Of a stretch of DNA of 64,000 nt, positions 1,322 through 42,914 are shown piece by piece. The DNA is taken from positions 394-64,393 of the forward strand of contig VGWF01000001.1 of assembly GCA_016873715.1 (NCBI GenBank), read 5' to 3'. Made by a program: the position numbers and the translations under genes. Under the pieces are notes generated by a model, which was not told the origin of the DNA, did no database searches, and saw only the letters and a list, made by a program, of their open reading frames with translations. How positions within the stretch are numbered: position 1 is the stretch's first letter; each line of letters starts with the position of its first letter. The DNA comes from Lentisphaerota bacterium (GTDB taxonomy: Bacteria; Verrucomicrobiota; Kiritimatiellia; PWTM01).

Positions 1322-2641
1322 TCAGGCCGTGCCGGGGATCGGGATGACGCCCTCCGCGGGGATCGTCACGGTGCCCTTCTCGAAGTCCTCGGGGGTCGGG
1401 CTGAGCTGGAGGTTGTAGAAGGGGCTCTCCTGGTTCTCGGCCAGGTCGACCCAGCGGACGATCTGCCCGGTGTAGGCGGAGAGACGCCCCATGATCGCGG
1501 TCAGCGTCGCCTCGGCGACGCCCCGCGTCTCGCTCAGCGGCCTGCCGTTGCGGAGGCTGGCGATCAGGTCGACGTGCTCCTGCACGTACGGGTTCACGCC
1601 GCCCTTCGGCTTCACGGCGGCCTTGCCGGCGGGGTTGAGCTTGCCGCCGGGCCACACGGAGCCGGTCGCGCCGACGAGATGCTCGCCGATGCGCTGGTAG
1701 CAGCCGTTGATCTGGCGGCACATGCTGTGGACCGTCACGTCGTCGCCGTAGTCATAGTCGACGCTGAAGAAATCGTAGCGGTTGCCGATCGGGCGGCGCG
1801 CCCGGCCGCCGAACCCGAGCGCGAACTGCGGCGGACGGCCGATGAACCAGTTCGCGACGTCGAGGTTGTGGACGTGCTGCTCGATGATGTGGTCGCCGCA
1901 GAGCTCGGTGAACTGGTACCAGTTGCGGACCATGAACTGCCCCGGGGTCTCGCCGTCGACCTTCTCGTACTCCAGCCGGGCGTTGCCGCCGCACCACCAG
2001 ACGCGGCCGGACAGGATCCTCCCGATCGCGCCGTCCTCGACCGCCTTTCGGTTCTCCAGGTAGACCGGGTCGTGCCGCCGCTGCGTTCCGGCGACGACGG
2101 AGAGCTTCTTCTCCTTCGCCAGCTCGCCCGCCGCGATCAGCCGCCGGCATCCGACGGGGTCCGCCGCGGCGGCCTTCTCGACGAACACGTGCTTCCCGGC
2201 CCGGACGCAGGCCTCGAGGTGGATCGGGTGGAACGCGACGGAGGAGGTGATGATGACGATGTCCATCGGAACCGCCGCCAGCATCTTGCGGTAGCCGTCG
2301 AAGCCGATGAAGGTCGTCTCCGGAGTGACCGTCACGCGCCGCTCGCCGGGCTTGAGGTTCTTCTCCGCCCACGCGGCCAGCGTCGCGCCGAACTTCGCGG
2401 AGCGGTCGGACAGCGCGTCCGCCGCCGCGACGATCTCGACCGCCGGATCCGCCTCCAGGCAGTTGATGGCGGCCCCGCCGCCGCGGTTCCCGCAGCCGAT
2501 CACCCCGACGCGGATGCGCTCGCTGCCCGCGGCGAGCATGCGGGGCGGCGCCGCGGCGGCGAGGGCCGGGATCGATGCGACGGCGGTGGCGGATCGCCGG
2601 AGGAAGTCGCGGCGGGTCGGGGCGGACGCGTTCGGGCTCAT
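1322..2641 (-). CDS. Gfo/Idh/MocA-family NAD(P)-dependent oxidoreductase with a Tat signal (RRDFLRR).
   Basis: 439 aa with the Rossmann motif 'VGVIGCGNRG' and a twin-arginine signal. Confidence 0.9.
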   Translation of the reverse strand: MSPNASAPTRRDFLRRSATAVASIPALAAAAPPRMLAAGSERIRVGVIGCGNRGGGAAINCLEADPAVEIVAAADALSDRSAKFGATLAAWAEKNLKPGERRVTVTPETTFIGFDGYRKMLAAVPMDIVIITSSVAFHPIHLEACVRAGKHVFVEKAAAADPVGCRRLIAAGELAKEKKLSVVAGTQRRHDPVYLENRKAVEDGAIGRILSGRVWWCGGNARLEYEKVDGETPGQFMVRNWYQFTELCGDHIIEQHVHNLDVANWFIGRPPQFALGFGGRARRPIGNRYDFFSVDYDYGDDVTVHSMCRQINGCYQRIGEHLVGATGSVWPGGKLNPAGKAAVKPKGGVNPYVQEHVDLIASLRNGRPLSETRGVAEATLTAIMGRLSAYTGQIVRWVDLAENQESPFYNLQLSPTPEDFEKGTVTIPAEGVIPIPGTA

Positions 2642-2702
2642 CGTTCTCTCCTTGCGCGGGCGGCCGTCGCGGTGCGCCGGGCCCCGCCGCGGTTCATCCC
2701 TA

Positions 2703-3653
2703 TCACGTCGCGGCGCGTCCCGCCACAGGTTCGGCGGGCATGCGGGCGTGCCGCGTGACGTAGGCGTTGTTGCGGGCGGTGTCGGCGACGCAGTCGGCGA
2801 GGTCGGGATGCTGGGTCTCGTAGACGAACCAGCCGTCGTAGCCGGTCTCCTCGAACGCGGCGAAAGCGGCGGGCCAGTCGATCGGGCCGGGCTCCTCGAT
2901 CAGCTTGTCCTCGTTCTTCACGTGCACCGCGCAGATCCGCCGGCCGAGCAGCTTCACGCCCGGCACCGTCTCGGCGCCGAAGCCGTAGAAGGCCATGTTG
3001 AAAGGGTCGTAGTAGACGCCCACCGACGGCCGGTCGGCGAGGTCCACGAGTTTCCGGTTGTCCGCGGGGCTCAGCGAGTTCTCCAGCCCGAGCATGACGC
3101 CCGCGTCCGCGGCGGCTGCGGCGACGGCCTGCAGGTTCGCCACCATCGGGCCGTAGGAGGCCTCGCGGGTCATGTCCGGTGCCGCGTCCTTGAAGAACGA
3201 GACCAGGATCACGCCGCAGCCGAGCATCTCCGCCGCGCGGATCGACAGGCGCAGGCTCTCGGGCGCCTTCGGGTCGGAAAGGGTGATGCCCTTGTCCCAC
3301 ACGCCGGAGAGCGACGGGACGCGGATGCCCCACCGGTCGCTCTCGCGCTTGTACGCGCGCACGACGTCCCCATCGCGCAGGTTCTTCGCGCCCGACGTCA
3401 CCTGCAGCTCGACGCCCGAGATGCCGGGCATGCCCGCGGCGGCGCGGAGGACGCCGAGATCGCCGACCATCCTCATGCTCGCCGCGCGGATGCCCAGCTT
3501 GAGCGGGCATCGCGCCCGAGGCGCCGGCGGGGCGTCCGCCGCGCGGGCGGCCCCGGGCATCGCGCCCGCCGCCAGCCCCATCACGCAGGACTTGAGGAAC
3601 CCCCGCCGCGCGACGTGGAATCCGTCAGGAGTGGTCATCGTCATCGCCTCCAT
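2703..3653 (-). CDS. Sugar phosphate isomerase/epimerase (xylose-isomerase-like TIM barrel) with a Tat signal (RRGFLK).
   Basis: 316-aa ORF that is a typical partner of Gfo/Idh/MocA genes; same-strand operon with 1322..2641. Confidence 0.8.
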   Translation of the reverse strand: MEAMTMTTPDGFHVARRGFLKSCVMGLAAGAMPGAARAADAPPAPRARCPLKLGIRAASMRMVGDLGVLRAAAGMPGISGVELQVTSGAKNLRDGDVVRAYKRESDRWGIRVPSLSGVWDKGITLSDPKAPESLRLSIRAAEMLGCGVILVSFFKDAAPDMTREASYGPMVANLQAVAAAAADAGVMLGLENSLSPADNRKLVDLADRPSVGVYYDPFNMAFYGFGAETVPGVKLLGRRICAVHVKNEDKLIEEPGPIDWPAAFAAFEETGYDGWFVYETQHPDLADCVADTARNNAYVTRHARMPAEPVAGRAAT

Positions 3654-3947
3654 GTCCTTCTCCGTCGCCTCCGTGCGATCCGTGGCGGGCCTTCCTCCGC
3701 CGCAGCAGGGCCAGGGCCGCGCCCGCCGCGATCAGCACGCCGCCGGCGGATGCCGCGAAGGGTACGCCCGGCCCGGCCGCCGAGGCGAGGCCGATCGGCG
3801 GGCCGACGAGGTGGGCGGGCACCGGCATCGCCGATGCCGTGCATCGATCGGGGAAGCGCCGCGGCGCCCGGGGCCTGCGGTTCGGGCTTGCGCGGGACGA
3901 TGAAACGGCCTATCAAACGACGTAACATTAGTAAATCGAGGTGGGCC

Positions 3948-4763
3948 ATGGCGGTCCGGACGAAGGCGGGCGGGGATGGTCGGTACGCGGTGCCTGCGGT
4001 GGACGGCATGCTGGACATCGTCGAGTTCCTCGCGGGGCAGCCGCGGCCGTGGGGGATCAACGAGCTGGCGCGGGAGCTGGGCATCACGACGAACATGGCC
4101 TTCCGCATCCTGCGGCGGCTGACGGAGCGGGGGTACGTCGAGGCGGCGGGCGAGGGGGGCTACCAGCTCGGCACCCGGTTCTTCTCGCTGGGGATGCGGC
4201 TCTACACGCGGTTCGAACTCCGGGCGCGAGCCCGGCCGCATCTCGAGCGGCTGGCGTCGTCGACCGGGGAGACGTGCCAGCTGCACGTCCTCAACGCCCG
4301 CGGCATGCTGGTGGTCGACGTGGTGAACCCGCGCGCCGACTTCTTCCTGCAGGTCGTGCCGGGCGCGCACCTCAACTGTCACGCCAATGCTTTCGGCAAG
4401 GCGGTGCTCGCGTTCCTGCCGTCCGCGGAGGCGCGGCGGTACCTGGCCGGGAAGCTCGAACGCATGACTGACCGGACGCTGATCTCCGCCGCGGCGGTGG
4501 TCCGCCAGTTCGACGCGATCCGCGCGACCGGCCTCGCCTACGACCGGGAGGAGTACGTGCGGGGCGTCCACTGCGTCGGCGCGCCGGTCTTCGACGCCTC
4601 CGGCGCGGTCGCTGCGGGCCTCGGGACCACGGGCCTGGCGATGGCCCGGGAGGGCGCGGGGGCGGAGACGTGCGAGCGGGCGGTGCTCGACTGCGCCGCC
4701 GCGGTCTCGAAGGACATCGGTTACGCTGGCGAGCGCTTCGAGGCGTGGAGGAAGCGGTCGTGA
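3948..4763 (+). CDS. IclR-family transcriptional regulator.
   Basis: An N-terminal wHTH ('INELARELGITTNMAFRILRRL') and a C-terminal IclR effector domain; ATG at 3948 follows an AT-rich segment. Confidence 0.85.
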   Translation: MAVRTKAGGDGRYAVPAVDGMLDIVEFLAGQPRPWGINELARELGITTNMAFRILRRLTERGYVEAAGEGGYQLGTRFFSLGMRLYTRFELRARARPHLERLASSTGETCQLHVLNARGMLVVDVVNPRADFFLQVVPGAHLNCHANAFGKAVLAFLPSAEARRYLAGKLERMTDRTLISAAAVVRQFDAIRATGLAYDREEYVRGVHCVGAPVFDASGAVAAGLGTTGLAMAREGAGAETCERAVLDCAAAVSKDIGYAGERFEAWRKRS

Positions 4764-7700
4764 ACTCCGCCATTCCCGCCTTCGCCGCGTGCGCAGCGGC
4801 CGTCCTTGCGGCAGCCGCGCCGCCGTCCCGTCCGCATCCGATCGTCGCGTGGCTGCCGCCGGAGTCGCTGCCGTCCGAGCCGGCGACGCGGGCGCTGACA
4901 CCCGACGAAGCTGCGGCGGCCTTGGAGCGCGACTGGCTGTTCCAGTGCGACGGGCGTCCTTCGCGGGGCGCCGTGGAGGCGGAGATCCGGCGCGCACGGC
5001 GCATCGCCACGGCCCTGGCCGACGGCCCCGCGCGGTCCGTTGCATCGTCCGCCCTGGAACGGCTGGCGGCGATCGAGGCCTCCCTGAAGGATCCGGCCGT
5101 CCCGCGGTGCGTACCCCCGCGGCCCGACGGCATCGCCGGACGGTGGTCGTTCGAGGGCACGGACGACGAGGTGTCGGCGTTCAGGCCCCTGGGATCCTGG
5201 GTCTTCGTCGACGGCGTGTTCGCAAACGGAGTGGCGCTCGGCGGCGGCGCCTACGCCGACGCCGGGGCGCAGGCCCATGGCGTCTTCGCAGGGTCCTACT
5301 CGGTGACCGCGTGGATCCGGACCTCGTCGGACGAGGCCGATGTGATCGGGACCGGGGTGGGGCGGGACCACGTCCTGCTGATGGCCTTCCGCGGCGTGGT
5401 GCGGGGCCATCACTGGACGGCCGGCGGTGCGAACGTGATCGACGGAAAGACCCCGTTGGCCGACGGCGCATGGCACCACATCGCGCAGGTCGTCGACGGC
5501 ACGACGATCCGGCTCTACGTCGACGGGAAGCCGGACGGCGAGCAGCCCTTCAAGGGCCGCGCCGCCGTGCCGCCCGCGCCGCTGCTGATCGGCGCGCGGT
5601 CCATGGATCCCGCGTCGCTCCGGTCGAGATTCCAGGGCGAGATGGACGAGATCCTGCTGCTCGGCCGGGCGCTGGGCGCCGACGAGATCGCCGGCCCCCA
5701 CGCCGCCGGGCGCGCCGCGCTGGAGGCATCGGCCGGGGCCTCGCGCGAGCCCTACCTGGCGGTGCGGCGCATCAAGCGCGACCTCATGGTCCGCGACCCC
5801 GCGGTCGACTTCAGCCGCGTCGTCTTCATCGACCAGCCGTATCCGCAGGGCGCGGAATGGGCGCACGAGGCGCGGCACCGCAACGGCACGATGGCCGTGC
5901 CCGGCGGGCGGCTGCTGACGCTCGAAGGCCTGCACCCGGGCGGCACGGTGCGCAAGCTCGCGCCGGCGGACGGCCCCGCCGCGTTCTGGCGGCCGGACGT
6001 GTCGTTCGACGGCCGCCGCGTGCTCTTCTGCATGAAGCCGGCGGCGGAGAAGGCCTTCCACCTGTACGAAATCGGCGCGGACGGAAAGGGGGTCCGCCGG
6101 ATCACGGACGGCGACTACGACGATCTCGACCCGATCTACCTTCCGGACGGGCGCCTCCTGTTCTCGACCTCGCGCGCGAACACCTACGTCCGCTGCATGC
6201 CCTACACGTACGCGTACGTGCTGGCGCGCTGCGACGCGGACGGCAGGAACCTCTACGTCGTCAGCCCCGGCAACGAGCCCGACTGGCTGCCGTCGCTGTT
6301 GAACGACGGACGCGTGATCTTCACGCGGTGGGAGTACACCGACAAGGCGCTGTGGCGGATCCAGAGCCTCTGGACGATGAACCCCGACGGATCCAGCCTC
6401 TCGGCCTTCTGGGGCAACCAGAGCGTCTGGCCCGACATGCTCGTCGAGCCGCGCGCGATCCCCGGGAGCCGCCGCGTGATGTTCAGCGGCTGCGGCCACC
6501 ACGACTGGTTCGGCGGTCCGATCGGCATCGTCGACCCCGCCCAGGGCTTCAACTTCCCCGACGGGCTGACGAAGGTCACGGCCGACGTGCCGTGGGCCGA
6601 GTGCGGGCCTCCGCCGGTCGACCCGGTCGAGAGCGCCGCCTACGAACCCGCCGGCCGGTTCGGCGCGTACAAGACGCCGTATCCGCTCTCCGACCGTCTC
6701 TTCCTCGTCTCGGCGCGCACCGGCGGGCTGAACACGCCGCGGGACAAGCAGCCGGGGAGCTTCAAGCTCTACCTGATGGACGTCGACGGCAACCGCGAGC
6801 TGATCCACGAGGGCGCGTTCAACATCCTCCACGCGATGCCGCTGCGCCCGAGGCCGGCCCCGCCGGTGATCGCCGACCGCGTCGAATGGCCCGGGACCGG
6901 GCCGGACCGCAAGCCCGCCGCGCCGGGCGTGCTCTTCTCGGGGGATGTCATCCAGGGACCGACGCGGATTCCGCGCGGCGAGGCGAAGTGGCTGCGCGTG
7001 GTCGCGATGGACGCGAAGACCTACTCGTCGTGGATCCGCGAGGAGATGCCGCACCAGCACTCGGGTCCGGCGGTTTCGCTGCTGCAGGCCGACGGCGTGA
7101 AGCGGATCGTCAGCGAGGTTCCGGTGGAGGCCGACGGTTCGGTGAACTTCGAGGCGCCCCCGGGCGTGGCGCTGCATTTCCAGCTTCTCGACGGCGGGCG
7201 TCGCGCGATCCAGACGATGCGCTCCTTCGTCGGCGTCATGCCCGGCGAGCGGCGCGGCTGCGTCGGCTGCCACGAGATGCACAGCGTCGCCCAGGTGAAC
7301 GCGCGCGGCGCGGCCCTGGAGCGCGCCCCGTCCGCGATGACGCCGCCGCCGTGGGGCGCGGACACGACGCTGGGCTACGAGCGGTCGATCCACCCGATCC
7401 TGGAGAGGCACTGCGGCGCCTGCCACCAGGGGGACGGCAAGGGGCGGAAGGCCTTCGACGTCACGCTGCGGCCGGGGCTCGGCATCTTCAAGGAGCCCTA
7501 CGTCACGCTCGTCGGCGGGTCGCTGTACCACGGTCCGAAGTCGCTCGAACCGCCCGCGACGATCGCTGGATGCCTGCCGGTCGAAACGTGGCCCACCGCC
7601 GGCGCGCCGGAGGGCGTGCGGACGTTTCCGCCGATGACGTGGATGTCGCGCACGAGCCGCCTCGTGAACCACTACGCCTCCGGGGCGCATCACGCCGAGG

Positions 7701-7930
7701 TGCGGATGCCGGAGGCCGAGCGCCGCGTGCTGGCCGCCTGGGTCGACCTCACCGCGCCCTACCGGGGCGACGAGGAGATCCGCGCGCTGCCCGATCCCGA
7801 CTTCCCCGGCATCGGGGACCTCCCCGTCCGCCCGCGCGTGCGCACCGCGCCGGTGATCGACCGCTTCAACCTGCCCCAGGACGGCGTGGCCAGGGCGATG
7901 TCCGCATCCGCCGGAAAGGCGACGCCATGA
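4760..7930 (+). CDS. Secreted multidomain protein, paralog 1. It has a signal peptide, a LamG/ConA-like domain, a PD40/TolB-like beta-propeller and two CxxCH motifs ('GCVGCHE', 'RHCGACHQGDGKGRKAFDVT', PSCyt1-like).
   Basis: ORF 4670..7930. The GTG at 4760 overlaps the IclR stop (GTGA), and a signal peptide follows it. Conserved blocks are shared with the genes at 7927 and 45528. Confidence 0.85.
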   Translation: MNSAIPAFAACAAAVLAAAAPPSRPHPIVAWLPPESLPSEPATRALTPDEAAAALERDWLFQCDGRPSRGAVEAEIRRARRIATALADGPARSVASSALERLAAIEASLKDPAVPRCVPPRPDGIAGRWSFEGTDDEVSAFRPLGSWVFVDGVFANGVALGGGAYADAGAQAHGVFAGSYSVTAWIRTSSDEADVIGTGVGRDHVLLMAFRGVVRGHHWTAGGANVIDGKTPLADGAWHHIAQVVDGTTIRLYVDGKPDGEQPFKGRAAVPPAPLLIGARSMDPASLRSRFQGEMDEILLLGRALGADEIAGPHAAGRAALEASAGASREPYLAVRRIKRDLMVRDPAVDFSRVVFIDQPYPQGAEWAHEARHRNGTMAVPGGRLLTLEGLHPGGTVRKLAPADGPAAFWRPDVSFDGRRVLFCMKPAAEKAFHLYEIGADGKGVRRITDGDYDDLDPIYLPDGRLLFSTSRANTYVRCMPYTYAYVLARCDADGRNLYVVSPGNEPDWLPSLLNDGRVIFTRWEYTDKALWRIQSLWTMNPDGSSLSAFWGNQSVWPDMLVEPRAIPGSRRVMFSGCGHHDWFGGPIGIVDPAQGFNFPDGLTKVTADVPWAECGPPPVDPVESAAYEPAGRFGAYKTPYPLSDRLFLVSARTGGLNTPRDKQPGSFKLYLMDVDGNRELIHEGAFNILHAMPLRPRPAPPVIADRVEWPGTGPDRKPAAPGVLFSGDVIQGPTRIPRGEAKWLRVVAMDAKTYSSWIREEMPHQHSGPAVSLLQADGVKRIVSEVPVEADGSVNFEAPPGVALHFQLLDGGRRAIQTMRSFVGVMPGERRGCVGCHEMHSVAQVNARGAALERAPSAMTPPPWGADTTLGYERSIHPILERHCGACHQGDGKGRKAFDVTLRPGLGIFKEPYVTLVGGSLYHGPKSLEPPATIAGCLPVETWPTAGAPEGVRTFPPMTWMSRTSRLVNHYASGAHHAEVRMPEAERRVLAAWVDLTAPYRGDEEIRALPDPDFPGIGDLPVRPRVRTAPVIDRFNLPQDGVARAMSASAGKATP

Positions 7931-10900
7931 GAATCGCCTCTTCCGGCCGACACGGAGGTCGGCCCTCCGGCCCGTCGGCATGCCGTTCGGTTTCGCGACT
8001 GGAGGGCCGGGCTCTGTCCCGGCCGTTCCGGTCCGGGGCGCTCGCCGCGTTTCTCAGCCTCGTCGCCGCGGTCGCACCCGCGGCGGAATCGGAAGCCACC
8101 GGTGTCGCGTCGCCGCTGCCCCCGCTGGCGGTTCACGTGAAGCGCGACACCCTCGCTGCGACCCTGCTCGCGAGCCGCGCCGCGCTGGCCGCATGGCGCG
8201 CGGAGCAGGCCGCCGTGCGGCCGGGGCTGGTGTGGGGCCCGTGGTCCGTCAGCGCGGCGGGCAAGCCCGACGCGCCCGCCCCCGCGGTCGATCCCGCGGC
8301 GAAGGACGCGGAGGGCGCGCCCCTCTGGCAGCCGCGGGCCGGATGGAAGGACGGCCAGTTCCTCCCGCTGGTTCCTGCCGGGCAGCCGAACGCGCCCGCG
8401 ACCGTGTGGCTGACGCGAACCGTCGTCGCCTCGCGACCCGCGACGGTGACCGTCGGCCTCGGCGGTGGCGACCGGATCGAGGTGCGGATCAACGGCACAG
8501 TCGCGCACACGCTCGACACCCGCGCCTGCTACGAGCGCTATGGCTGCAGTCTCGCGACGGACACGATCCACGCCGACCAGGTCATGGTGGGTTTGGCGCT
8601 CCCCGCGGGCACGAACCGGCTGACCCTCGGTGTGTCGCAGTCCGACATCGGGCGCCAGGCCCCGTTCCGTCTGTGGTTCTCCTCCGCGCCGAATCCCGTG
8701 CCGCACCTCTGGCAGCGCATCCGCCGCGACTTCCCGCCGTCGGGCCATGCGTTGCTGGAGGCCGTGCCGTACCCGTGGTTCGAAGCCGGGGGCTGGTTCG
8801 ACGCGGACGATTCGCGGCTCGAACGCGCGTTCGTCGCCGATGTCGCGGCCTCCAACGCGCCGCTCGCCGCGCTGCTCGGCCCGCCTCTCGCCGCCCTCGA
8901 GTCGGCGAAGGCCCCGGCCGGCGACCCCCGGTGGCTCGACCTTTGCGTCACCGCCGCGGAGCAGGCGCGGGCGGCGGACCGGCTCGGCCGGCTGGCGGCG
9001 GCGGTGGCGGAACTCGCGCGTTCGCACCCGGCGTATCCGGCGGATCGTCTGCTTGGCGAGATCGACGGGCTGCGCTCGGCGGTTCTTCGCGGCGAGCCGT
9101 CGCGCCCCGCGGTGGACGCCCTCGCGCGCCGCGCCCTGGTGGACGAGAGCCCGCTGCTGAAGGGGCGGAAGCTCCTCTTCTCCCGCCGGTACACGTACGA
9201 CTCGCGGCATTACTACGACGACTACTACGCGGGCCTTCGCGAATGGGGCGGGAACCTCTGCGAACTCGACCCCGCCACGGGCAAGGTCCGCGAGATCGTG
9301 CCGAAGCTCGCGGGCGGTATCTTCGACCGCTACGACCTCTCGCGGGACGGCCGGCGCGTCGTCTTCGGGTATCGCGCGCCGCGGCCCGAGGGCTTCCGCA
9401 TCTGGGAATGCCGCCTCGACGGCTCCGGCCTGCGGCAGCTCACGGCTCCGCCCGCCGACGAGCCGGAGCGCATCGCGCGGCACGCGGGCTACACGCGCGA
9501 GGCGATGGAGAAGGACCCGCGGCTCTACGGTCACTGGACCGACGACCTGCACCCGTGCTACCTGCCCGACGGCCGGATCGTCTTCGTCTCGAGCCGCTCC
9601 GAGCGCAGCGTCCTGTGCGGCGGGCACCCGCTGACCTGCACGACGCTCCACCGGATGGATGCCGACGGCCGCGACCTGCACGAGCTTTCGCAGGGCGCGC
9701 TGACCGAGTCGACGCCGACGCTGCTCGACGACGGCCGCATCCTCTACACGCGCTGGGAGTACGTCTACAAGGGCATTGCCGCCGTCCAGTCGCTCTGGGC
9801 GATGCGTCCCGACGGCACGGCCTCGGAGGAGATCTACGGCCACAACATCGACAACCCCGGCGTCTTCTTCGCCGGCCGCCAGATCCCCGGCGCGCCGGAC
9901 CGCGTCGTCGCCGTCGGCTGCGGCCACGAGCCGCTCGCCGTGGGTTCGATCCGCGTGATCGACCGCGCGAAGGACCGCCGCACGAAGGACGCGATGACGA
10001 GCCTCACGCCCGAGGTCGAGACGCGAAACCTCCGCGGGTTCTTCCAGTACCGCAACGGCCGGTGGAACGCGGAGGACGTGTACGGCCCGTTCTATACCGA
10101 CCCGTACCCGCTCTCGGAGCACTTCTTCCTCGTCTCGCACAACCCGTCCTCGCGGTACAACGACCGCGACGCCTACGGCATCTGGCTGATCGACACGTTC
10201 GGCAACCGCGTGCCCGTGTATGACGACCCGGAGATGTCCTGCTTCCAGCCGACGATCCTCGCCCCGCGCGCCGCGCCGCCCGCGCTGCCGCCGATGATCG
10301 CGGACGAGGCCGCGACCCACGGCGAGGCGACCGTGCTGCTGGTGGACCTCCACCGCGGCTTCACCAACGTCGCGCCGGGCACCGTGAAATACCTGCGCGT
10401 GATGGAGCAGATCCCGCGCTCGTGGGCGGCCTCGCAGGTGCAGCCGGGCGACGGCATCCCCGGCCAGACGACCGCCGTCTCGCTCAACACCCACATCTGG
10501 ATCGGCGTGCTGCTCGGCGTCGTCCCGGTCGAGGCGGACGGCTCGGCGTTCTTCCGCGTGCCGGCGCGGCGCAACCTCTACGTCACCGCGCTCGACGGCG
10601 ACTTCCTGGAAGTCCAGAAGATGCGGACCTTCGTCAACTTCCAGCCCGGCGAGACGCGCTCGTGCGTCGGCTGCCACGACCCGCGCGACGGCACCCCCGT
10701 CACGACGCGGCCGCTGGCGATGAACCGCGCGCCCTCGGCCATCGCCCCGCAGCCCGGCGACGCCGGTCCGCGTCCGATCCACTATCCGTCCGACGTCCAG
10801 CCGGTGTTCGACCGCCACTGCGTCGCCTGCCACGGCGGCGACAAGCCGAAGGGCGGCCTCGATCTGACCGGGGAGATGACGACGCACTTCAACCGCTCCT

Positions 10901-11832
10901 ACGAGACGCTCCTGAAGAAGGGCCTCGTGAACTTCATCCAGGAATGGACCGGGCCCGCGCCGGAGCAGGCCGGTCCGGGCCACGTGCCGAACGGAAGCAT
11001 GCTCTTCTCCGAGGCCGTCGCGCCGTACACGTTCGGTTCGCACCGCAGCCGCCTGATCGAGGTCCTGCGCAAGGGCCACCACGACGTGAAGCTCCCGCGC
11101 GAGGAGTTCATCCGCATCGCGACGTGGGTCGATGCCAACGTTCCGTACTACGGCTCCTACTTCGGCCGGAAGAACATCGCCGCGAAGGGGCGCCCGGGGT
11201 TCCGCCCGGCCCCGACGCTGGAGTCCGCGCGCGGGATCGAGCCGCCGCCCTACGTGCCGCCGGCCCTGCCGGCGAAACTTCTCGCGTCGTGGGGGGCGGA
11301 CGCGCTGCCCGCGGCGTTCGACGGCACGGCCGGGGTGGCCGGCGCCGCCCCCGGCGCGCACGAGGCGGTCTCGGTCGCGCTGTGGGTCCGGCCGGAGAGC
11401 CTCGGCAACCGGTGGAACCCGCTGCTCTTCACGGACGGTGGGGGCGCGTCGGCCTTCCATTTCAGCCTGCTCGAGGACGGCACGCCGAACGTCGCGGTCA
11501 ACTACGGCGGCAAGATGTGGATGCACAGCCGCGCCGAAACGGCGGTCGCGCCGGGCGCGTGGCGGCACGTCGCCGTCGCGTGCGATCCCCGCGCCGGCGG
11601 TTCGATCCGCTTCTTCGTCGACGGCCGCCCCGCCGGCCGCAAGCCGCTGGACCTCGGCGTGCCGGTCGACCTCGCCGCCTTCCGCCTCGGCGCCTGGAAC
11701 CAATGGGCGAAACAGCCCGCCAGCAACTTCCACGGCGTGATGGCCGGCGTGCGGCTGTACGCGGGCCTGCTGACCGACGACGAGGTCGCGGCGCTGGCCC
11801 GCACGGGACCGGATGCGGCGGTGCGACGGTAA
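7927..11832 (+). CDS. Secreted multidomain protein, paralog 2. It has an N-terminal beta-sandwich-like domain, a helical linker, a PD40 beta-propeller, two CxxCH motifs ('SCVGCHD', 'RHCVACHGGDKPKGGLDLT') and a C-terminal LamG/ConA-like domain.
   Basis: Second half of the 2347-aa fused ORF. ATG at 7927 overlaps the upstream stop (ATGA), indicating translational coupling. The motifs 'VPVEADGS', 'CVGCH', 'KPKGGLDLT' and 'W(V/I)DxN(V/A)xYYG' are shared with its paralogs. Confidence 0.85.
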   Translation: MRIASSGRHGGRPSGPSACRSVSRLEGRALSRPFRSGALAAFLSLVAAVAPAAESEATGVASPLPPLAVHVKRDTLAATLLASRAALAAWRAEQAAVRPGLVWGPWSVSAAGKPDAPAPAVDPAAKDAEGAPLWQPRAGWKDGQFLPLVPAGQPNAPATVWLTRTVVASRPATVTVGLGGGDRIEVRINGTVAHTLDTRACYERYGCSLATDTIHADQVMVGLALPAGTNRLTLGVSQSDIGRQAPFRLWFSSAPNPVPHLWQRIRRDFPPSGHALLEAVPYPWFEAGGWFDADDSRLERAFVADVAASNAPLAALLGPPLAALESAKAPAGDPRWLDLCVTAAEQARAADRLGRLAAAVAELARSHPAYPADRLLGEIDGLRSAVLRGEPSRPAVDALARRALVDESPLLKGRKLLFSRRYTYDSRHYYDDYYAGLREWGGNLCELDPATGKVREIVPKLAGGIFDRYDLSRDGRRVVFGYRAPRPEGFRIWECRLDGSGLRQLTAPPADEPERIARHAGYTREAMEKDPRLYGHWTDDLHPCYLPDGRIVFVSSRSERSVLCGGHPLTCTTLHRMDADGRDLHELSQGALTESTPTLLDDGRILYTRWEYVYKGIAAVQSLWAMRPDGTASEEIYGHNIDNPGVFFAGRQIPGAPDRVVAVGCGHEPLAVGSIRVIDRAKDRRTKDAMTSLTPEVETRNLRGFFQYRNGRWNAEDVYGPFYTDPYPLSEHFFLVSHNPSSRYNDRDAYGIWLIDTFGNRVPVYDDPEMSCFQPTILAPRAAPPALPPMIADEAATHGEATVLLVDLHRGFTNVAPGTVKYLRVMEQIPRSWAASQVQPGDGIPGQTTAVSLNTHIWIGVLLGVVPVEADGSAFFRVPARRNLYVTALDGDFLEVQKMRTFVNFQPGETRSCVGCHDPRDGTPVTTRPLAMNRAPSAIAPQPGDAGPRPIHYPSDVQPVFDRHCVACHGGDKPKGGLDLTGEMTTHFNRSYETLLKKGLVNFIQEWTGPAPEQAGPGHVPNGSMLFSEAVAPYTFGSHRSRLIEVLRKGHHDVKLPREEFIRIATWVDANVPYYGSYFGRKNIAAKGRPGFRPAPTLESARGIEPPPYVPPALPAKLLASWGADALPAAFDGTAGVAGAAPGAHEAVSVALWVRPESLGNRWNPLLFTDGGGASAFHFSLLEDGTPNVAVNYGGKMWMHSRAETAVAPGAWRHVAVACDPRAGGSIRFFVDGRPAGRKPLDLGVPVDLAAFRLGAWNQWAKQPASNFHGVMAGVRLYAGLLTDDEVAALARTGPDAAVRR

Positions 11833-12238
11833 GCCGGGCGGGTTCACCCGCGGGGCGTGTCATGCGGTCATGGAGTCGTGGGTTTGCCCGCGCGGCGAGG
11901 GAACCGGCGATCCGCACGACACGCTGTGCGGGCAACTGCAGGTGTGCCGACGCCAACGCAAGCCCGGCCCCTGCGATTCGCAACCCGCCTGCAACCTGGC
12001 TTTCCGCCGCGGCCCGTGGACCTCGCCACCGAGTCCCCCGGCACGAGGAGCTGCGAGCCATGCCCATTTCTGTGGCGCATCCGGCGCGCCTGTGGTGAAG
12101 TAGGCGGCACGATGAACCCGCGCGTTCTGTCCGCCACGCTCGCCGCCCGGTCGTCGGCGCTGCGCCGGTGGGGCGACCGCTTCGGCTTCGAGAGCCGAGA
12201 TGTCCGCCATCCGCGCCTGTCGCGATAAAGGAGAGGCC

Positions 12239-13447
12239 GTGAAGAGAACCGTCAGCCTGGGTCTTGCCGCTGTCCTGCTCGCACCGCCGGCCGCCCTGTG
12301 CGAGGCGCCGACGACGACGGAATCCCCGGGCGGCTTTGCGGTCGCTTCGAAGCTGGAGGAGTTCCTCGGCGAACCGGTCCTCGTGCCGATGCAGGAGCTC
12401 TGGAAGGGGCGCGGGGGGTGGGGCGGAATCGTGGCGGCGCGGGACGGGACGCTGGTGGTGTTCCGGTCGCCCGGCGGTGGCGAGTGCCGGCGCAGCCGCG
12501 ACGGCGGGAAGACCTGGGATGCCGACATCGTCATCGCGCCCGACGCGAAGGGCGGCCGCGCGCTGGTGGACGAGTCGAACGGCGACCTGCTCTATGCGAA
12601 TCCGCCGTCCGGCTGGCTCTACCGCAGCCGCGATTCCGGCGCCACGTGGACGTGCGAGACGAACGCGATCCTTCCCGACGGCTTCGGACTCGTTCCGACC
12701 CTCGAGGGCGTCTCCGCGATGCAGGCCGGCATCACGCTGGCGTTCGGACCGCGCAAAGGCCGGCTGATCATGCCCGCGCGCATCACGGGGCCGAAGGGTT
12801 CGAACGCCGTCGGGTGGCGGCCGTACCACTACAGCACCGCGCTCTACAGCGACGACGGCGGGAAGGTCTGGCAGACCAGCAAGCCCTTCCCCGTGATGGG
12901 CACCGGCGAGGCGACGCTGGCGGAACTCTCCGACGGCAGCATCCTCTACAACTCCCGCGAGCACATGAGCCGCGGCAACCGCTTCTTCGCGACGAGCCAC
13001 GACGGCGGCGACCTGTGGATCGACGCGCGTCGCAGCGCCGAGCTGCCCGACGGCGCGCGCGGCACGTCCTACGGCTGCATGGGCGGCATGGTCCGCCTGC
13101 CCGTCGCCGGGCGCGACATCCTGATCTACAGCAACCTCGACACCGACTCCGGCGAGATGCCGAGGCAGGTCGGGGCCTCGATCGTCAAGGGCCGGGAGAG
13201 GATCACCGTCTGGGCGAGCTTCGACGGCGGGCGCACGTGGCCGGTCAAGCGCCTGGTCTACGAAGGTCCCAGCGCCTACTCCAACCTCGGCGTCGGCCGC
13301 TCCGGCACGCCGTGCGCGGGCCGGATCTTCCTCGTCTTCGAGGGCAGCGCGGCGGGCTGCAGCGAGGCCGTCCACGTCGCCTCGTTCAACCTCGCCTGGC
13401 TGCTCGACGGCCGCGACATCGCCGGGTTCCTCGCGAAGCAACCCTGA
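12239..13447 (+). CDS. BNR/Asp-box sialidase (exo-alpha-sialidase, GH33-like) with a signal peptide.
   Basis: Five Asp-box motifs (SRDGGKTW, SRDSGATW, SDDGGKVW, SHDGGDLW, SFDGGRTW). An RBS 'aaaggagag' precedes the GTG at 12239. Confidence 0.8.
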   Translation: MKRTVSLGLAAVLLAPPAALCEAPTTTESPGGFAVASKLEEFLGEPVLVPMQELWKGRGGWGGIVAARDGTLVVFRSPGGGECRRSRDGGKTWDADIVIAPDAKGGRALVDESNGDLLYANPPSGWLYRSRDSGATWTCETNAILPDGFGLVPTLEGVSAMQAGITLAFGPRKGRLIMPARITGPKGSNAVGWRPYHYSTALYSDDGGKVWQTSKPFPVMGTGEATLAELSDGSILYNSREHMSRGNRFFATSHDGGDLWIDARRSAELPDGARGTSYGCMGGMVRLPVAGRDILIYSNLDTDSGEMPRQVGASIVKGRERITVWASFDGGRTWPVKRLVYEGPSAYSNLGVGRSGTPCAGRIFLVFEGSAAGCSEAVHVASFNLAWLLDGRDIAGFLAKQP

Positions 13448-13464: not shown

Positions 13465-14772
13465 ATGCCGTCGCCGCCCGTCCATCTCGCCGCCCTGCTT
13501 CTCGCGCCGCTGACCGTCGCGGCGGCGGGCGGCGGCTTCGAGGGCGGGATCGGCGTGGTGGACATCACGTCCACGGGGGCCGTCGTGCTGGCGGGCTCGC
13601 CGGTCCGGGTGGCGACGGCGGAGGTCGCGAGCCGTCTGCAGGTCCGCGCGCTGGTCCTCGCCGCGGGCGGGCGCAAGGTGGCGATCGTCGCGCTGGACAC
13701 GCTGAAGTACCCCGTCGAGCACGTGGAGCGGGCGCGCCGGCGGATCGAGGAGACGACGGGCATCCCGGCCGGCCACGTCGTCCTCTGCGCGTCGCACACG
13801 CACCGCGGCCCGCTGTGGAGCCACTACGGGGACCAGCTGGTGACGCCCATCGCCGAGGCGGTGGCGATCGCGACGCGCGATCTCGCGCCCTGCAGCCTCG
13901 GAGCGGCGAAGGGCAGGGCCGAGGGCGTCAGCGAGTGCCGGCGGGTGGTCAGGGAGGGCCACGCCTGGAACCGGTGGCAACTGGCCCCCGGGGAAGCCGA
14001 CACGTACCCGGCGGAGGGACCGGCCGATCCGGAATTCGACGTCCTCGCGGTGACCGGCGGCGACGGGAAGCTCAAGGCGATCGTGTACAACTTCGCCTGC
14101 CACGCCGCGAATACGCGGACTTCCGTGATCTCGGCGGACTACCCGGGCGACGTCGAGCGGCATGTCCGGAGCCGTCCGGGCTACGATGTCCCCGTGCTGT
14201 TCCTGGCCGGCGCGTGCGGCGACGTGAATCCGGTCTACAGCGCGGCGCAGGGGCTTCTCGGGGAGCGGCTCGGCGCGGCCGTCATCGACTGCCTTGGCCG
14301 GCTCGAACCCATCGCCGGGCCGTCGCTCTCGGTGGAAGGCCGGGAGCTGCGGATGCCGGGCCGGGAGCATCCGGAGTTCCGGGAGGCCGAGGTTGCCCGG
14401 AACTGGCCCGGGCAACTCGAGCACTACCGGAAGTCCTTCGACGACATGAAGCGGCGGGAGAAGCCGGCCTATCCGTTCGCCCTGACCGGCATCCGGATCG
14501 GCGACCGCTTGGCGATCGCGACCGTCCCCGGCGAGCTGTTCTGCGAGATCGGGATGGCCATCAAGACGCGGTCGCCGTTCCGGCACACGATGGTCGTCGA
14601 ACTTGCCAACGGCGCCCACGGTTACATCCCCACGGCGAAGGCGTTCGAGGGCGGAAGCTACGAGACATGGTTCGGCGAGCATTCCTGCCTCACGACGCGG
14701 GCCGGGGAGATCGTCGAGATGGAGTCGGTGGACATCCTGAACAACCTGAAACGAGCGGAGATGACCCCATGA
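13465..14772 (+). CDS. Neutral/alkaline (non-lysosomal) ceramidase-like hydrolase.
   Basis: 'GIGVVDITSTG' and 'CASHTHRGP' match the neutral-ceramidase N-terminal-domain motifs; there is a signal peptide and the stop overlaps the next start (ATGA). Confidence 0.7.
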   Translation: MPSPPVHLAALLLAPLTVAAAGGGFEGGIGVVDITSTGAVVLAGSPVRVATAEVASRLQVRALVLAAGGRKVAIVALDTLKYPVEHVERARRRIEETTGIPAGHVVLCASHTHRGPLWSHYGDQLVTPIAEAVAIATRDLAPCSLGAAKGRAEGVSECRRVVREGHAWNRWQLAPGEADTYPAEGPADPEFDVLAVTGGDGKLKAIVYNFACHAANTRTSVISADYPGDVERHVRSRPGYDVPVLFLAGACGDVNPVYSAAQGLLGERLGAAVIDCLGRLEPIAGPSLSVEGRELRMPGREHPEFREAEVARNWPGQLEHYRKSFDDMKRREKPAYPFALTGIRIGDRLAIATVPGELFCEIGMAIKTRSPFRHTMVVELANGAHGYIPTAKAFEGGSYETWFGEHSCLTTRAGEIVEMESVDILNNLKRAEMTP

Positions 14773-41333: not shown

Positions 41334-42914
41334 TCACGCTTCGCCGCGGAGTTCGCACAGCGAGGCGTCGATCTTCCCGAGGACCACGCGTCGGACCACG
41401 AAGAGATCCTCGGCCATCGCGAGCGACCCCAGGTACCGGCGCAGGCGGCTGGGATTCCGGCGGCGGATGCCCGCGAGCTGCGCCCAGTAGCGCCACCGGC
41501 AGGGGGCGATCACGCCCAGCTGCCAGGACAGGCGCGCGAAGAGCTCGACGTCGCGCCAGCGGATTCGGGCCTGCGGACGGCGCGGGTCGGCGTCCTTGAC
41601 GCCCGCGGCGGCGCGCAGCGCGGCGCGGGTCGGCCGCATCCGCAGGTGGTACCGGTAGGCCCGCGCCAGGAGATCGGAGGGTTCCATCAGCCGCGTCCAG
41701 AGGCCGCGGTAGCCGGCCAGGACGTCGGCCGCCGGCCGCGAGGGGCGGTAGGCGAGGCGGCCGATCGTCGTGTTGCCCTGATCCGTGCCTCCGGTCTCCA
41801 GAAGGCGGCCCTCCCGCGCGAGCCGTTGCCACAGGCGCGTGTTGGGCAGCGGGACGAGCAGGTTGAGCACGATCTGCGGAAGGTCGGTGGCCGCGACGAA
41901 TTCCTCGATCCGCCGCTCGGCGTCCGGCGATTCGCCATCCAGCCCGAGCACGAAGCTGCCCACCACGTTGAGCCCGTTGGCCCCCATGGCGTTGACGGAC
42001 TCCTCCATCGATCCGCGGACGTTCTGGTGCTTCCCGGCCTGCTGGAGGGCGTTGTCGTCCAGGGTTTCGATGCCGACGAAGACGGTGGAGAAGTTCGCCT
42101 CGGTCATGCGGTCGATGAGGTCCCGGTCGCGGCCCAGCCGGATCGACGCCTGCGTCCAGAACACGAACGGTTCGCCGTGCGCCTTCATCCACGGGATGAG
42201 CCGGTCGAGGAGGGCGCGCGCGCGCGGCGGGCTGCCGATGAAGTTGTCGTCGCTGATGAAGACCTCGTGCCGCCACCCGAGCCGGTACAGCTGCTCCAGC
42301 TCGGCGATGACCTGGTCGGGCGTCTTGTGCCGCGGCCTGCGGCCCAGGAGAGCCACCACGTCGCAGAACTCGCAGTCGTGGGGGCACCCGCGGGAGGTCT
42401 GGACGGCCATCGCGCCGTAGTCCTCCATCCGGACGAGATCGAAGCGCGGCACCGGCGAGTCGGCCAGGTCGGGCCGCTCGGCCGCCTCGAGGACGATCCC
42501 GGAACGCCCCGATGCGAGGGCCTCCAGGAGCGCCGGGACCAGCGCCTCGGCCTCGCCGCGGAGGACGATGTCGCTTCCGGCCGCAAGCATCGCGTCGGTC
42601 AGCGAACTCGTCGCGGGGCCGCCGGCGACGACCCTCTTCCCGCGCGCGCGGGCCCCGCGGATGAGCGCGAGCAGGCCCTCCTTCTGGACGAGCATGCCCG
42701 AGACCATCACCACGTCCGCCCAAGTCCAGTCCGCCTCCGGAGTGGGCCGGGCGTTCTCGTCCGCGAGCCGGATCTGCCAGTCGCGCGGCAGCAGCGCGGC
42801 GACGGTGAGCAGGCCGAGCGGGGGGATGAGCGTCTTCCACCCGCTTTGCCGGCACAGCCGGTCGAGGCTCCAGTAGGAGTACGGGAACCCCGGATGGACC
42901 ATCAGGACCTTCAC
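41334..42914 (-). CDS. B12-binding-domain radical SAM protein (CPHDCEFC cluster motif after an N-terminal cobalamin-binding-like domain).
   Basis: The GTG at 42914 is preceded by 'ggaagga' (alternative ATG at 42950). CxxxCxxC lies ~190 aa into the protein and there is no SPASM-type arrangement. Confidence 0.8.
   Translation of the reverse strand: MKVLMVHPGFPYSYWSLDRLCRQSGWKTLIPPLGLLTVAALLPRDWQIRLADENARPTPEADWTWADVVMVSGMLVQKEGLLALIRGARARGKRVVAGGPATSSLTDAMLAAGSDIVLRGEAEALVPALLEALASGRSGIVLEAAERPDLADSPVPRFDLVRMEDYGAMAVQTSRGCPHDCEFCDVVALLGRRPRHKTPDQVIAELEQLYRLGWRHEVFISDDNFIGSPPRARALLDRLIPWMKAHGEPFVFWTQASIRLGRDRDLIDRMTEANFSTVFVGIETLDDNALQQAGKHQNVRGSMEESVNAMGANGLNVVGSFVLGLDGESPDAERRIEEFVAATDLPQIVLNLLVPLPNTRLWQRLAREGRLLETGGTDQGNTTIGRLAYRPSRPAADVLAGYRGLWTRLMEPSDLLARAYRYHLRMRPTRAALRAAAGVKDADPRRPQARIRWRDVELFARLSWQLGVIAPCRWRYWAQLAGIRRRNPSRLRRYLGSLAMAEDLFVVRRVVLGKIDASLCELRGEA

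Follow-up and report, generated by a model that had tools for sequence, protein, structure and literature searches.

Gene arrangement and glycan-degradation setting

The locus described here (71% G+C) lies in a 64-kb window, the term used below for the whole stretch of DNA that was analyzed. On the forward strand, a gene for an IclR-family transcriptional regulator (positions 3948 to 4763; Pfam HTH_IclR and IclR_C) is followed directly by two genes for HzsA-related proteins on the same strand, P1 (4760 to 7930; 1,056 amino acids [aa]) and P2 (7927 to 11832; 1,301 aa from the coupled ATG), with P2 belonging to a subfamily other than P1's. The tandem open reading frames and their short overlaps, as described in the original prediction, were confirmed at both junctions. 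At the GTGA overlap (4760 to 4763), the GTG start of P1 at 4760 runs into the IclR stop TGA at 4761 to 4763, and at the ATGA overlap (7927 to 7930), the ATG start of P2 at 7927 precedes the P1 stop at 7928 to 7930. The NCBI annotation of P2 uses an internal start (8137; 1,231 aa), which makes the coupled ATG at 7927 plausible, not certain. A promoter and terminator scan of positions 3500 to 12400 returned nothing useful.

A third paralog, P3 (45528 to 48425, forward strand; 965 aa; HZS_alpha E value, 1.4e-20), was found 34 kb from the P1/P2 pair, beyond the region that the original prediction covered. It is about 31% identical to P1 and to P2, and the gene after it encodes a sulfatase with a TAT signal. 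Description of the surroundings as a sulfatase/sialidase glycan-degradation locus was borne out, as the window contains about 11 sulfatases and three BNR sialidase-like genes, together with a GH32 and a CBM/beta-helix protein.

Domain architecture of P1 and P2

P1 consists, in order, of a signal peptide, a helical region, a LamG domain, a long helix, a propeller, an HZS_alpha middle domain, and a C-terminal cytochrome c domain (AF2 model; pLDDT, 87.5; pTM, 0.88); all domain positions given here are on the forward strand. The Laminin_G_3/ConA-like beta-sandwich (residues about 125 to 311; positions 5132 to 5692) matched Laminin_G_3 (PF13385) over residues 161 to 311 (76.5 bits; cut-off, 27.6; E value, 3e-21). 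Within the TolB-like beta-propeller (residues about 353 to 700; positions 5816 to 6859), Arg472, Cys479, Arg523-Trp524-x-Tyr526, and His580 are invariant in the family. A TolB/PD40 propeller had been proposed for both proteins; a TolB-like propeller is present, and neither the PD40 threshold (PF07676; gathering score, 20.9) nor that of the TolB equivalog (TIGR02800; cut-off, 343) was reached. The HZS_alpha middle domain (residues 740 to 839; positions 6977 to 7276; Pfam PF18582; E value, 4.9e-21) contains the invariant Met820 and is closed by the first CxxCH motif (positions 7259 to 7273), in the block VPVEADGS...CVGCHE (Cys834/Cys837/His838). It is followed by a class-I-like cytochrome c domain (positions 7361 to 7789; weak Cytochrom_C and CBB3 matches) that aligned with the haem alpha-II region of HzsA and carries the conserved His977 and the second CxxCH motif (positions 7412 to 7426), in the block RHCGACHQGD (Cys885/Cys888/His889).

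P2 starts with an N-terminal beta-sandwich (residues about 101 to 252) and a helical bundle (residues about 258 to 406), which together span positions 8227 to 9144 in the AF2 model (pLDDT, 89.6); Foldseek matches of the sandwich to PA14 and to the sugar-binding sandwiches of GH2, GH3, and GH31 were weak (E values, 1e-4 to 1e-2). The HZS_alpha middle domain (residues 818 to 918; Pfam E value, 4.4e-21) and the start of the cytochrome c domain occupy positions 10378 to 10833, and both regions are colinear with HzsA. Here the CxxCH motifs lie at positions 10663 to 10677 and 10819 to 10833, in the blocks VPVEADGS...CVGCHD (913/916/917) and RHCVACHGGD (965/968/969); both motif blocks, as quoted in the original prediction for the two proteins, were found as described. 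A C-terminal Laminin_G_3 domain (residues 1145 to 1288; positions 11359 to 11790; PF13385, 72.6 bits against a cut-off of 27.6; Pfam E value, 5.1e-20) had domain 4 of AbnA as its PDB match, and in one other locus (L005), its counterpart is encoded as a separate gene just downstream. LamG is N terminal in P1 and C terminal in P2, as stated at the outset.

The comparison did not bear out a recently duplicated pair with exchanged domain positions. P1 and P2 share 32% identity over 668 aa (E value, 4e-76), whereas P1-type and P2-type proteins each have orthologues of 55 to 75% identity in other phyla, which rules out that the genes were duplicated in tandem recently and LamG then relocated. P2 has its own N-terminal beta-sandwich, and P1 and P2 are members of two old subfamilies.

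Haem motifs, family membership, and kinship with hydrazine synthase

P1, P2, and P3 are members of the family that NCBI names "HzsA-related protein," which, at a 50% identity threshold, falls into about 2,900 clusters from Verrucomicrobiota, Planctomycetota, and neighbouring phyla. Matches to HZS_alpha (PF18582; gathering score, 26.6) reached 75.5 bits for P1, 75.7 for P2, and 74.0 for P3, the order of propeller, middle domain, and cytochrome c domain is colinear with HzsA, and two CxxCH motifs stand at matching positions in all three proteins (positions 47871 to 47885 and 48027 to 48041 for P3). These six are the only CxxCH motifs in the called genes of the window, and they occupy homologous positions, with 0.004 to 0.007 motifs per protein expected by chance from composition.

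Among 77 diverse family members, drawn from subfamilies about 30% identical to one another, both CxxCH motifs (all six Cys and His columns), one Cys (Cys479), and one Met (Met820) were conserved in 77/77. His977 was conserved in 74/77 and lies within one residue of the distal His772 of HzsA in the alignment. Secretion of both proteins, as predicted, was corroborated by the clear Sec signal peptides of orthologues, and these, taken with the conservation of the CxxCH motifs and of His977, indicate that haem binding is under selection. Haem attachment and axial ligands in P1 and P2 are predicted from sequence, the putative ligand assignments being those of the alignment. The same conservation weighs against the view that these are non-redox glycan-binding or scaffold proteins, TolB-like binders with purely structural haems. 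Several lectin-like modules in P1 and P2 would suit such binders, as would the lack of a match to an enzymatic signature in any profile library; conservation in 77/77 of the two haem motifs, Met820, Cys479, and His580 across subfamilies 30% identical points instead to a chemical role, and we consider a scaffold quite unlikely.

A close match of the second motif block to PSCyt1, part of the original prediction, was not borne out. The PSCyt1 profile (PF07635; gathering score, 22) gave 20.1 bits for P2 (E value, 0.001; profile positions 1 to 18 of 59; residues 965 to 982) and no match for P1; assignment to that family was rejected because the match is below threshold and partial. Class I cytochrome c profiles (PF00034 and PF13442; gathering scores, 21.3 and 27) likewise stayed below threshold, the best being those of P2 (Cytochrome_CBB3, 23.1; Cytochrom_C, 17.2).

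The suggested resemblance to the propeller-plus-dihaem organization of hydrazine synthase alpha was upheld by the HZS_alpha scores and by both sequence and structure searches. HzsA of Kuenenia stuttgartiensis (PDB 5C2V chain A) was the best PDB match by sequence (5c2v_A; E values, 7.5e-10 for P2 and 8.6e-14 for the profile) and the top Foldseek match of the P1 model (E value, 1.1e-27; TM, 0.60 on target; 833 columns). P1 and P2 share the tripartite core of HzsA, in which an N-terminal propeller is followed by a middle domain that closes with CxxCH, and a C-terminal class-I cytochrome c domain supplies the second CxxCH together with the distal His. The sequences are only about 17% identical, however, and HzsA has Ala, Leu, and His where the HzsA-related family has Met820, Arg821, and Glu830, its specific invariants beside haem I. 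P1 and P2 also contain LamG or PA14-like modules and helical linkers that HzsA lacks, and their genes lie in a glycan-degradation locus, whereas that for HzsA lies in an anammox gene cluster. The family has the invariant propeller Cys479 and HzsA has the propeller Cys303 as zinc ligand, with partial alignments between the two.

Nitrogen-oxide, hydroxylamine, or hydrazine chemistry, as in genuine hydrazine synthase alpha, is suggested by the fact that HzsA is the closest characterized relative. Scores against the hydrazine synthase alpha equivalog (NF052339; cut-off, 800) were 25.5 bits for P1 and 39.4 bits for P2. Tyr591, the proximal ligand of HzsA haem alpha-I four residues past the CxxCH His (PMC12607021, PMC12758564), has no counterpart at that position (Ser842 in P1, Asp in P2, and Thr in P3), so the CxxCH His is probably a conventional ligand of haem I. 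[quoted passage not shown] The equivalog scores, together with the lack of Tyr591 and of beta/gamma genes in the window, rule out a genuine hydrazine synthase, and Hagglund et al. 2025 (PMC12758564) likewise judged other HzsA homologues not to be hydrazine-type enzymes; we regard nitrogen chemistry of this kind as very improbable for P1, P2, and P3.

These three belong to the HZS_alpha-domain proteins of non-anammox bacteria already described (PMC12758564; Dalcin Martins et al. 2023, PMC10732223), which have a wide distribution among Planctomycetota, Verrucomicrobiota, and neighbouring phyla and do not conserve key catalytic residues of hydrazine synthase. The clades in PMC12758564 were chosen for an adjoining gene for a fused beta-gamma homologue, a partner that P1, P2, and P3 do not have; in clade I of that work, the distal His of haem II is reported absent, whereas P1, P2, and P3 keep theirs. 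Both publications are silent on CBM fusions and on polysaccharide-locus context, and a search of the available library of papers found none tying hydrazine-synthase-like proteins to sulfatases, polysaccharides, fucoidan, or Kiritimatiellae.

Neighbourhoods across genomes and a proposed role

The view that haem proteins are not an expected component of such a locus was too strong, as HzsA-related genes recur in comparable loci and He et al. 2017 (10.1101/150078) had already reported cytochrome-c-domain genes with CBMs adjoining sulfatases in Verrucomicrobia. A role in carbohydrate metabolism was proposed for the PSCyt ("Planctomycete-specific cytochrome c") proteins with PSD domains in that work; like P1 and P2, they are exported proteins of the PVC group with a cytochrome c domain and numerous copies in each genome. 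Fusions to Laminin_G_3, NPCBM, or F5_F8_type_C modules, seen in members of the HzsA-related family as well, are frequent among them, as is a position beside sulfatase genes. PSD1-5 domains are absent from P1 and P2, as are DUF1501 and DUF1552 partners, and of the two groups only P1 and P2 have the propeller and HZS_alpha domains; they form part of a separate family.

Neighbouring genes in other genomes were called by codon usage, with training, locus by locus, on the HzsA-like gene. An IclR gene followed by an HzsA-related gene was also seen in loci L003, L005, L006, and L089, and in six independent loci the gene directly upstream of the HzsA-related genes encodes an IclR or GntR regulator. 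Arrays of HzsA-related genes stand among GH5, GH32, GH36, GH78, GH123, GH127, BNR, and sulfatase genes in the window, in L003 to L006, and on the P0001 contig. An IclR gene that precedes an array of divergent paralogs, with glycoside hydrolases and sulfatases alongside, recurs in several phyla, comparable arrays having been found in Verrucomicrobiota, Kiritimatiellae, and Planctomycetota.

Co-occurrence with sulfatase loci across genomes, put forward as a check, did not prove general. A sulfatase lay within 10 kb in only 8/80 GTDB loci (local sulfatase HMM) and was encountered twice among 118 immediate neighbours; a Pfam census of these neighbours, from 80 species-level loci, matched 152 families, none more than three times, and so revealed no conserved neighbour. 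The 8/80 loci and the census rule out a general association; the link is confined to some lineages and subfamilies, and some HzsA-related loci are without any CAZymes. A degree of co-location is to be expected by chance, given how rich PVC genomes are in glycoside hydrolases and sulfatases.

P1 and P2 might form an obligate heteromer, as in hydrazine synthase, with the overlapping genes ensuring equal production. The ATGA overlap is consistent with such a complex, as is the recurrence of adjacent divergent paralogs (P3-type then P2-type in L005 and L006; mixed types in L016, L018, L047, L077, and L089). A natural fusion of two cores in one 1,774-aa protein with four CxxCH motifs (P0241) points the same way, weakly, as a singleton from one assembly. 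Against this, the P1-P2 pairing, which the original prediction treated as a unit, is not conserved: after the P1 orthologue, the closest relatives (L007, 93% identity; L003, 84% identity) encode an unrelated 802-aa protein without a haem motif. A single HzsA-related copy is found in 61/80 GTDB loci, most P1-type genes are solitary, the subfamilies making up pairs differ from locus to locus, and the NCBI start of P2 at 8137 would abolish the overlap. The heteromer, which is compatible with the reading that we prefer, is a tentative and less likely possibility.

We propose, with a probability of roughly 0.55, that P1, P2, and P3 are exported dihaem c-type cytochromes, probably glycan-targeted periplasmic redox proteins. 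In each, the TolB-like propeller would be packed against the HZS_alpha middle domain carrying haem I, with haem II carried by the C-terminal cytochrome c domain. P1 and P2 would not act as hydrazine synthases, having neither a beta/gamma partner in the window nor Tyr591, and probably not the Tyr591/zinc arrangement of HzsA haem alpha-I. The ConA-like and PA14-like sandwiches may anchor the protein on a glycan or a glycan-derived ligand in the periplasm, the propeller/haem-I region may bind or convert the substrate, and haem II, probably bis-His, may exchange electrons with an outside partner. P1 and P2 would be cotranscribed with the upstream IclR gene, probably under IclR control, in a locus for utilization of sulfated/sialylated glycans. 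The redox or lectin-guided glycan-processing module suggested in the original prediction is a plausible hypothesis.

Alternatively, the proteins could be electron carriers and not enzymes, with neighbouring exported oxidoreductases as partners. Haem II resembles the surface bis-His electron-transfer haem of HzsA, and a TAT-signal Gfo/Idh/MocA oxidoreductase, a candidate partner, and a TAT-signal xylose-isomerase-like TIM-barrel protein are encoded immediately upstream, on the opposite strand. GFO_IDH_MocA was the most frequent neighbour family (12/87 loci, weak evidence given the great abundance of such oxidoreductases in PVC genomes), and in locus L091, the HzsA-related gene adjoins genes for a 3-keto-disaccharide hydrolase and GFO_IDH_MocA. 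A conserved 700-residue propeller with many invariant polar residues far exceeds the needs of a shuttle, however, and known periplasmic Gfo/Idh/MocA-type enzymes recycle their bound nicotinamide cofactor internally, which makes a pure carrier role unlikely. For the preferred reading, glycan-directed redox proteins, the pyranose dehydrogenase of Coprinopsis cinerea (AA12-AA8-CBM1) offers an analogy only: it is one of the haem- or quinone-linked sugar dehydrogenases that combine a six-bladed propeller, a cytochrome, and a CBM, but enzymes of this type use PQQ and b-type haem, and many other six-bladed propellers resemble P1 and P2 just as well.

Hydrazine synthase was long regarded as without relatives, and distant homologues have been reported only recently. 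The present locus has three HzsA homologues with sugar-binding-type modules, IclR coupling, and a sulfatase/sialidase-like cluster, and comparable arrays across Verrucomicrobiota, Kiritimatiellae, and Planctomycetota give a concrete, testable setting, namely, growth on sulfated/sialylated glycans. Were the proteins electron carriers or binders, the finding would be an ordinary one; were they glycan redox enzymes, they would add an extra oxidative or reductive step to polysaccharide degradation by abundant environmental bacteria. More speculatively, HzsA-related proteins could be a large, unrecognized haem-c class of glycan-directed redox proteins in PVC-type bacteria, an "auxiliary activity" beside sulfatases, sialidase-like enzymes, and glycoside hydrolases, with IclR-controlled divergent arrays serving differing specificities or hetero-complexes, and could be the pool from which anammox HzsA was recruited. 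The locus is also relevant to the activity of the ancestor of hydrazine synthase.

Gene layout, domains and predicted folds

The tandem paralogs P1 (4760-7930, +; 1056 aa) and P2 (7927-11832, +; 1301 aa) lie head to tail behind an IclR-family regulator gene (3948-4763, +; Pfam HTH_IclR and IclR_C), in a window of 69-74% G+C. The overlaps are as originally predicted, with the GTG of P1 on the IclR stop (GTGA) and the ATG of P2 on the P1 stop (ATGA). The translationally coupled P2 start at 7927 is likely but not proven, because the NCBI annotation starts P2 at 8137 (1231 aa). Both NCBI records (MBM4153409.1 and MBM4153426.1; metagenome-assembled "Lentisphaerae bacterium") are named "hypothetical protein".

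Both predicted CxxCH-bearing motif blocks were found in P1 and P2. By composition, 0.004-0.007 CxxCH would be expected per protein; among all called genes of the window, the motif was limited to P1, P2 and a third paralog, P3, at homologous positions. The N-termini of orthologues carry ordinary Sec signal peptides, and c-type haem attachment requires export.

Pfam searches matched HZS_alpha (PF18582) in P1 (E 4.9e-21) and P2 (E 4.4e-21) and Laminin_G_3 at residues 161-311 of P1 and 1145-1288 of P2; PD40 and general cytochrome c profiles stayed below threshold in both. The proposed PSCyt1 likeness proved weak, with a sub-threshold match in P2 that covers 18 of the 59 profile positions (20.1 bits against a gathering score of 22) and no hit in P1. 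The two proteins are 32% identical over 668 residues, spanning the propeller, middle and cytochrome domains. P1 was modelled confidently (pLDDT 87.5, pTM 0.88). Behind the signal peptide and three helices come a beta-sandwich (125-301) and a 38-residue helix, then the propeller (~353-700) and a middle domain, rich in beta structure, that closes with the first CxxCH; the C-terminal helical cytochrome-type domain bears the second. The N-terminal 350 residues of P2, without Pfam match, were modelled as a beta-sandwich and helical bundle (pLDDT 89.6); for the sandwich, PA14 and the sugar-binding sandwiches of GH2/GH3/GH31 enzymes were weak structural matches (E 1e-4 to 1e-2). The "swapped" LamG arrangement therefore holds for the Pfam domain; a beta-sandwich and helical linker nevertheless precede the propeller in both proteins, and the LamG of P2 is additional.

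Relation to hydrazine synthase and conservation

HzsA, the alpha subunit of hydrazine synthase (Kuenenia stuttgartiensis, PDB 5c2v_A), was the top PDB match by sequence (E 7.5e-10 with P2, 8.6e-14 with the family profile), with segments colinear across the propeller, middle domain and C-terminal haem domain. It also ranked first in Foldseek (E 1.1e-27, 833 columns, TM 0.60 on target), with TolB next. It is established that P1, P2 and P3 are exported HzsA-related family members with two conserved haem-binding sites, and equally that they are not hydrazine synthases. A genuine hydrazine synthase was ruled out on three grounds: scores of 25.5 (P1) and 39.4 bits (P2) against the cut-off of 800 for the NCBIfam alpha-subunit equivalog; Ser, Asp or Thr in P1, P2 and P3 in place of Tyr591, which in HzsA is an atypical proximal ligand to haem alpha-I (PMC12607021); and, in the 64-kb window, no beta or gamma subunit gene and no CxxCH gene besides P1-P3. 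Nitrogen chemistry is a very unlikely rival explanation, favoured by the HzsA matches and opposed by these differences.

Distant HzsA homologues outside anammox bacteria were described by Hagglund et al. 2025 (PMC12758564), with more than 600 structural matches named "HZS_alpha domain-containing protein", none of known function; according to the authors, these homologues do not conserve key catalytic residues. Dalcin Martins et al. 2023 (PMC10732223) raised the idea of a wider enzyme family whose members use other substrates. P1 and P2 are new members of a known, named, uncharacterised family. At 90% identity there are at least 2,399 clusters for the P2 core and at least 869 for P1 (from 8,000 scored candidates per query), nearly all unnamed and some called "HzsA-related protein" by NCBI. 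When 1.84 billion representatives were searched with a core profile, 2,936 clusters reached E ≤ 1e-30 and 6,733 reached E ≤ 1e-10. Species-representative genomes held at least 599 matching places, often several per genome, with Verrucomicrobiota, Planctomycetota, Armatimonadota, Hydrogenedentota and Omnitrophota among the matches listed.

In an alignment of 77 members, whose subfamilies are mutually ~30% identical, both CxxCH motifs, the propeller Cys479 (P1 numbering), Met820 (14 residues ahead of the first CxxCH) and Trp524 and Tyr526 of an RWEY motif were kept in all 77. Arg472, Arg523 and His580 were kept in 76, Arg821 in 75 and His977 in 74. This conservation argues that haem binding is clearly under selection. 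In the alignment with HzsA, His977 falls within one residue of His772, which is the distal ligand to the bis-His haem alpha-II. HzsA has Ala, Leu and His where the family has Met820, Arg821 and Glu830; judged from the aligned residues, the predicted surroundings of haem I differ from those in HzsA.

Glycan loci in the window and in other genomes

Besides ~11 sulfatase genes, the window has three BNR sialidase-like genes, an esterase, a GH32 with two LamG domains and a CBM/beta-helix protein. With the HZS_alpha and 5c2v_A matches, this content bears out the core of the original prediction: HzsA-like, dihaem, LamG-bearing proteins in a glycan locus. The GH32 protein (25929-30176, +; 1416 aa) has its two Laminin_G_3 matches N-terminal to the catalytic domain, and a 946-aa protein (34077-36914, +) has two tandem sulfatase domains. 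A 435-aa protein without Pfam match (13465-14769, +), beside BNR sialidase-like genes, recurs in four loci (including L003, 19113-20420) and by eye only resembles neutral ceramidase-type hydrolases. Amid sulfatase genes lies a radical SAM protein with DUF4070 (41337-42914, -), without the SPASM-type architecture usual for anaerobic sulfatase-maturating enzymes. P3 (45528-48425, +; 965 aa) has both CxxCH and an N-terminal domain without Pfam match; a sulfatase with a twin-arginine (TAT) signal, RRRDFV, begins ~120 nt 3' of it. Farther downstream, 2.1 kb from P3, are two short adjoining ORFs with FG-GAP repeats (50566-51576, +) that may be a single disrupted gene; Hagglund et al. 2025 (PMC12758564) report an FG-GAP (CRTAC1-like) gene beside the HzsA homologues of their clades I-III. 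At the right end, an ECF sigma factor and zf-HC2 anti-sigma factor pair (62862-63991, -) forms a second regulatory system bordering the locus.

Upstream of the IclR gene, a Gfo/Idh/MocA oxidoreductase is paired with a xylose-isomerase-like TIM-barrel protein (1325-3653, -), and the pair recurs in L001-L003 (homologous loci from other genomes). As both bear twin-arginine export signals, they would be periplasmic sugar-type redox or isomerase enzymes. A less likely rival explanation makes P1, P2 and P3 pure electron carriers serving such neighbouring TAT-exported oxidoreductases; Gfo/Idh/MocA is the commonest neighbour family of HzsA-related genes, at 12 of 87 loci.

Glycan genes recur around related proteins. 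A Verrucomicrobia locus (L005) runs IclR, BNR, two adjoining HzsA-related genes, a separate LamG gene, GH5, three sulfatases, GH32 and a further LamG-HzsA-related gene; a Kiritimatiellae locus (L006) has IclR, two adjoining HzsA-related genes, two GH genes, two more HzsA-related genes and GH78. The contig of P0001, a 75% orthologue of P2, carries a sulfatase, GH36 and four consecutive HzsA-related genes, and a Planctomycete locus (L004) has GH127 immediately upstream and GH78 close by. L089 (Planctomycetota) has IclR and three HzsA-related genes with no CAZyme, and glycan genes are absent from L087, L088 and L090 (various taxa). In L091 (5523-9881, -), genes for PSCyt1/PSCyt2, PSD1 and DUF1501 directly adjoin a 3-keto-disaccharide hydrolase gene and an HzsA-related one, which places two different "PVC-specific" cytochrome c families in one neighbourhood.

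Neighbouring copies are normally of different subfamilies by typing (P3-type then P2-type in L005 and L006). An obligate P1-P2 complex is a rival explanation for the overlapping pair; the pairing is not conserved, as an unrelated 802-aa protein follows the P1 orthologue in its closest relatives L007 (93% identical) and L003 (84%), in L003 with the same 4-nt overlap. That protein (L003, 13171-15576; L007, 2750-5155) has no Pfam match or haem motif, and its "DDGW" stretch recalls, by eye only, alpha-galactosidase-type TIM barrels. Two full HzsA-related cores with four CxxCH, joined via a beta-sandwich and helical linker, make up P0241 (1774 aa; ENA, 1.9-Mb contig), which may be an assembly artefact because it is the sole member of its cluster.

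Among 80 species-level loci retrieved with the P1 profile, only 8 had a sulfatase within 10 kb. Neighbour clustering over 87 loci gave no common partner gene (IclR 8, sulfatase 8), and none of the 152 Pfam families matched among 118 immediate neighbours occurred more than three times. The association with sulfatases and polysaccharide utilisation loci (PULs) is therefore limited to some lineages and subfamilies and does not hold family-wide.

Proposed function and significance

Three features support a putative link of HzsA-related proteins to glycans. Modules of lectin or CBM type are fused to them repeatedly (Laminin_G_3 in many members, NPCBM with Laminin_G_3 in P0225, F5_F8_type_C in L006, the PA14-like sandwich of P2); their genes have an operon-like placement among glycoside hydrolases and sulfatases at five or more independent loci; and IclR or GntR regulators lie immediately upstream. 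These lead us to favour P1, P2 and P3 as periplasmic, glycan-targeted haem proteins with a redox function, in which haem II would be the entry or exit point for electrons and the propeller/haem-I region the working site. A non-redox binder is a less likely rival explanation, favoured by the lectin-like modules and opposed by the conserved haem sites.

That haem proteins are unexpected in such loci was overstated. In freshwater Verrucomicrobia, He et al. 2017 (10.1101/150078) found PSCyt-type cytochrome c genes that bear CBMs (including Laminin_G_3, NPCBM and F5_F8_type_C) and adjoin sulfatases, and proposed a carbohydrate role; haem c proteins there are thus not without precedent. For HzsA-related proteins, a link to sulfatases or polysaccharide loci was found neither in PMC12758564 and PMC10732223 nor in the other literature searched, and the recurring CBM-bearing paralog arrays in polysaccharide loci appear to be unpublished. 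The window itself is one further example; the arrays give a useful pointer to what a very large family does and to the ancestry of hydrazine synthase.
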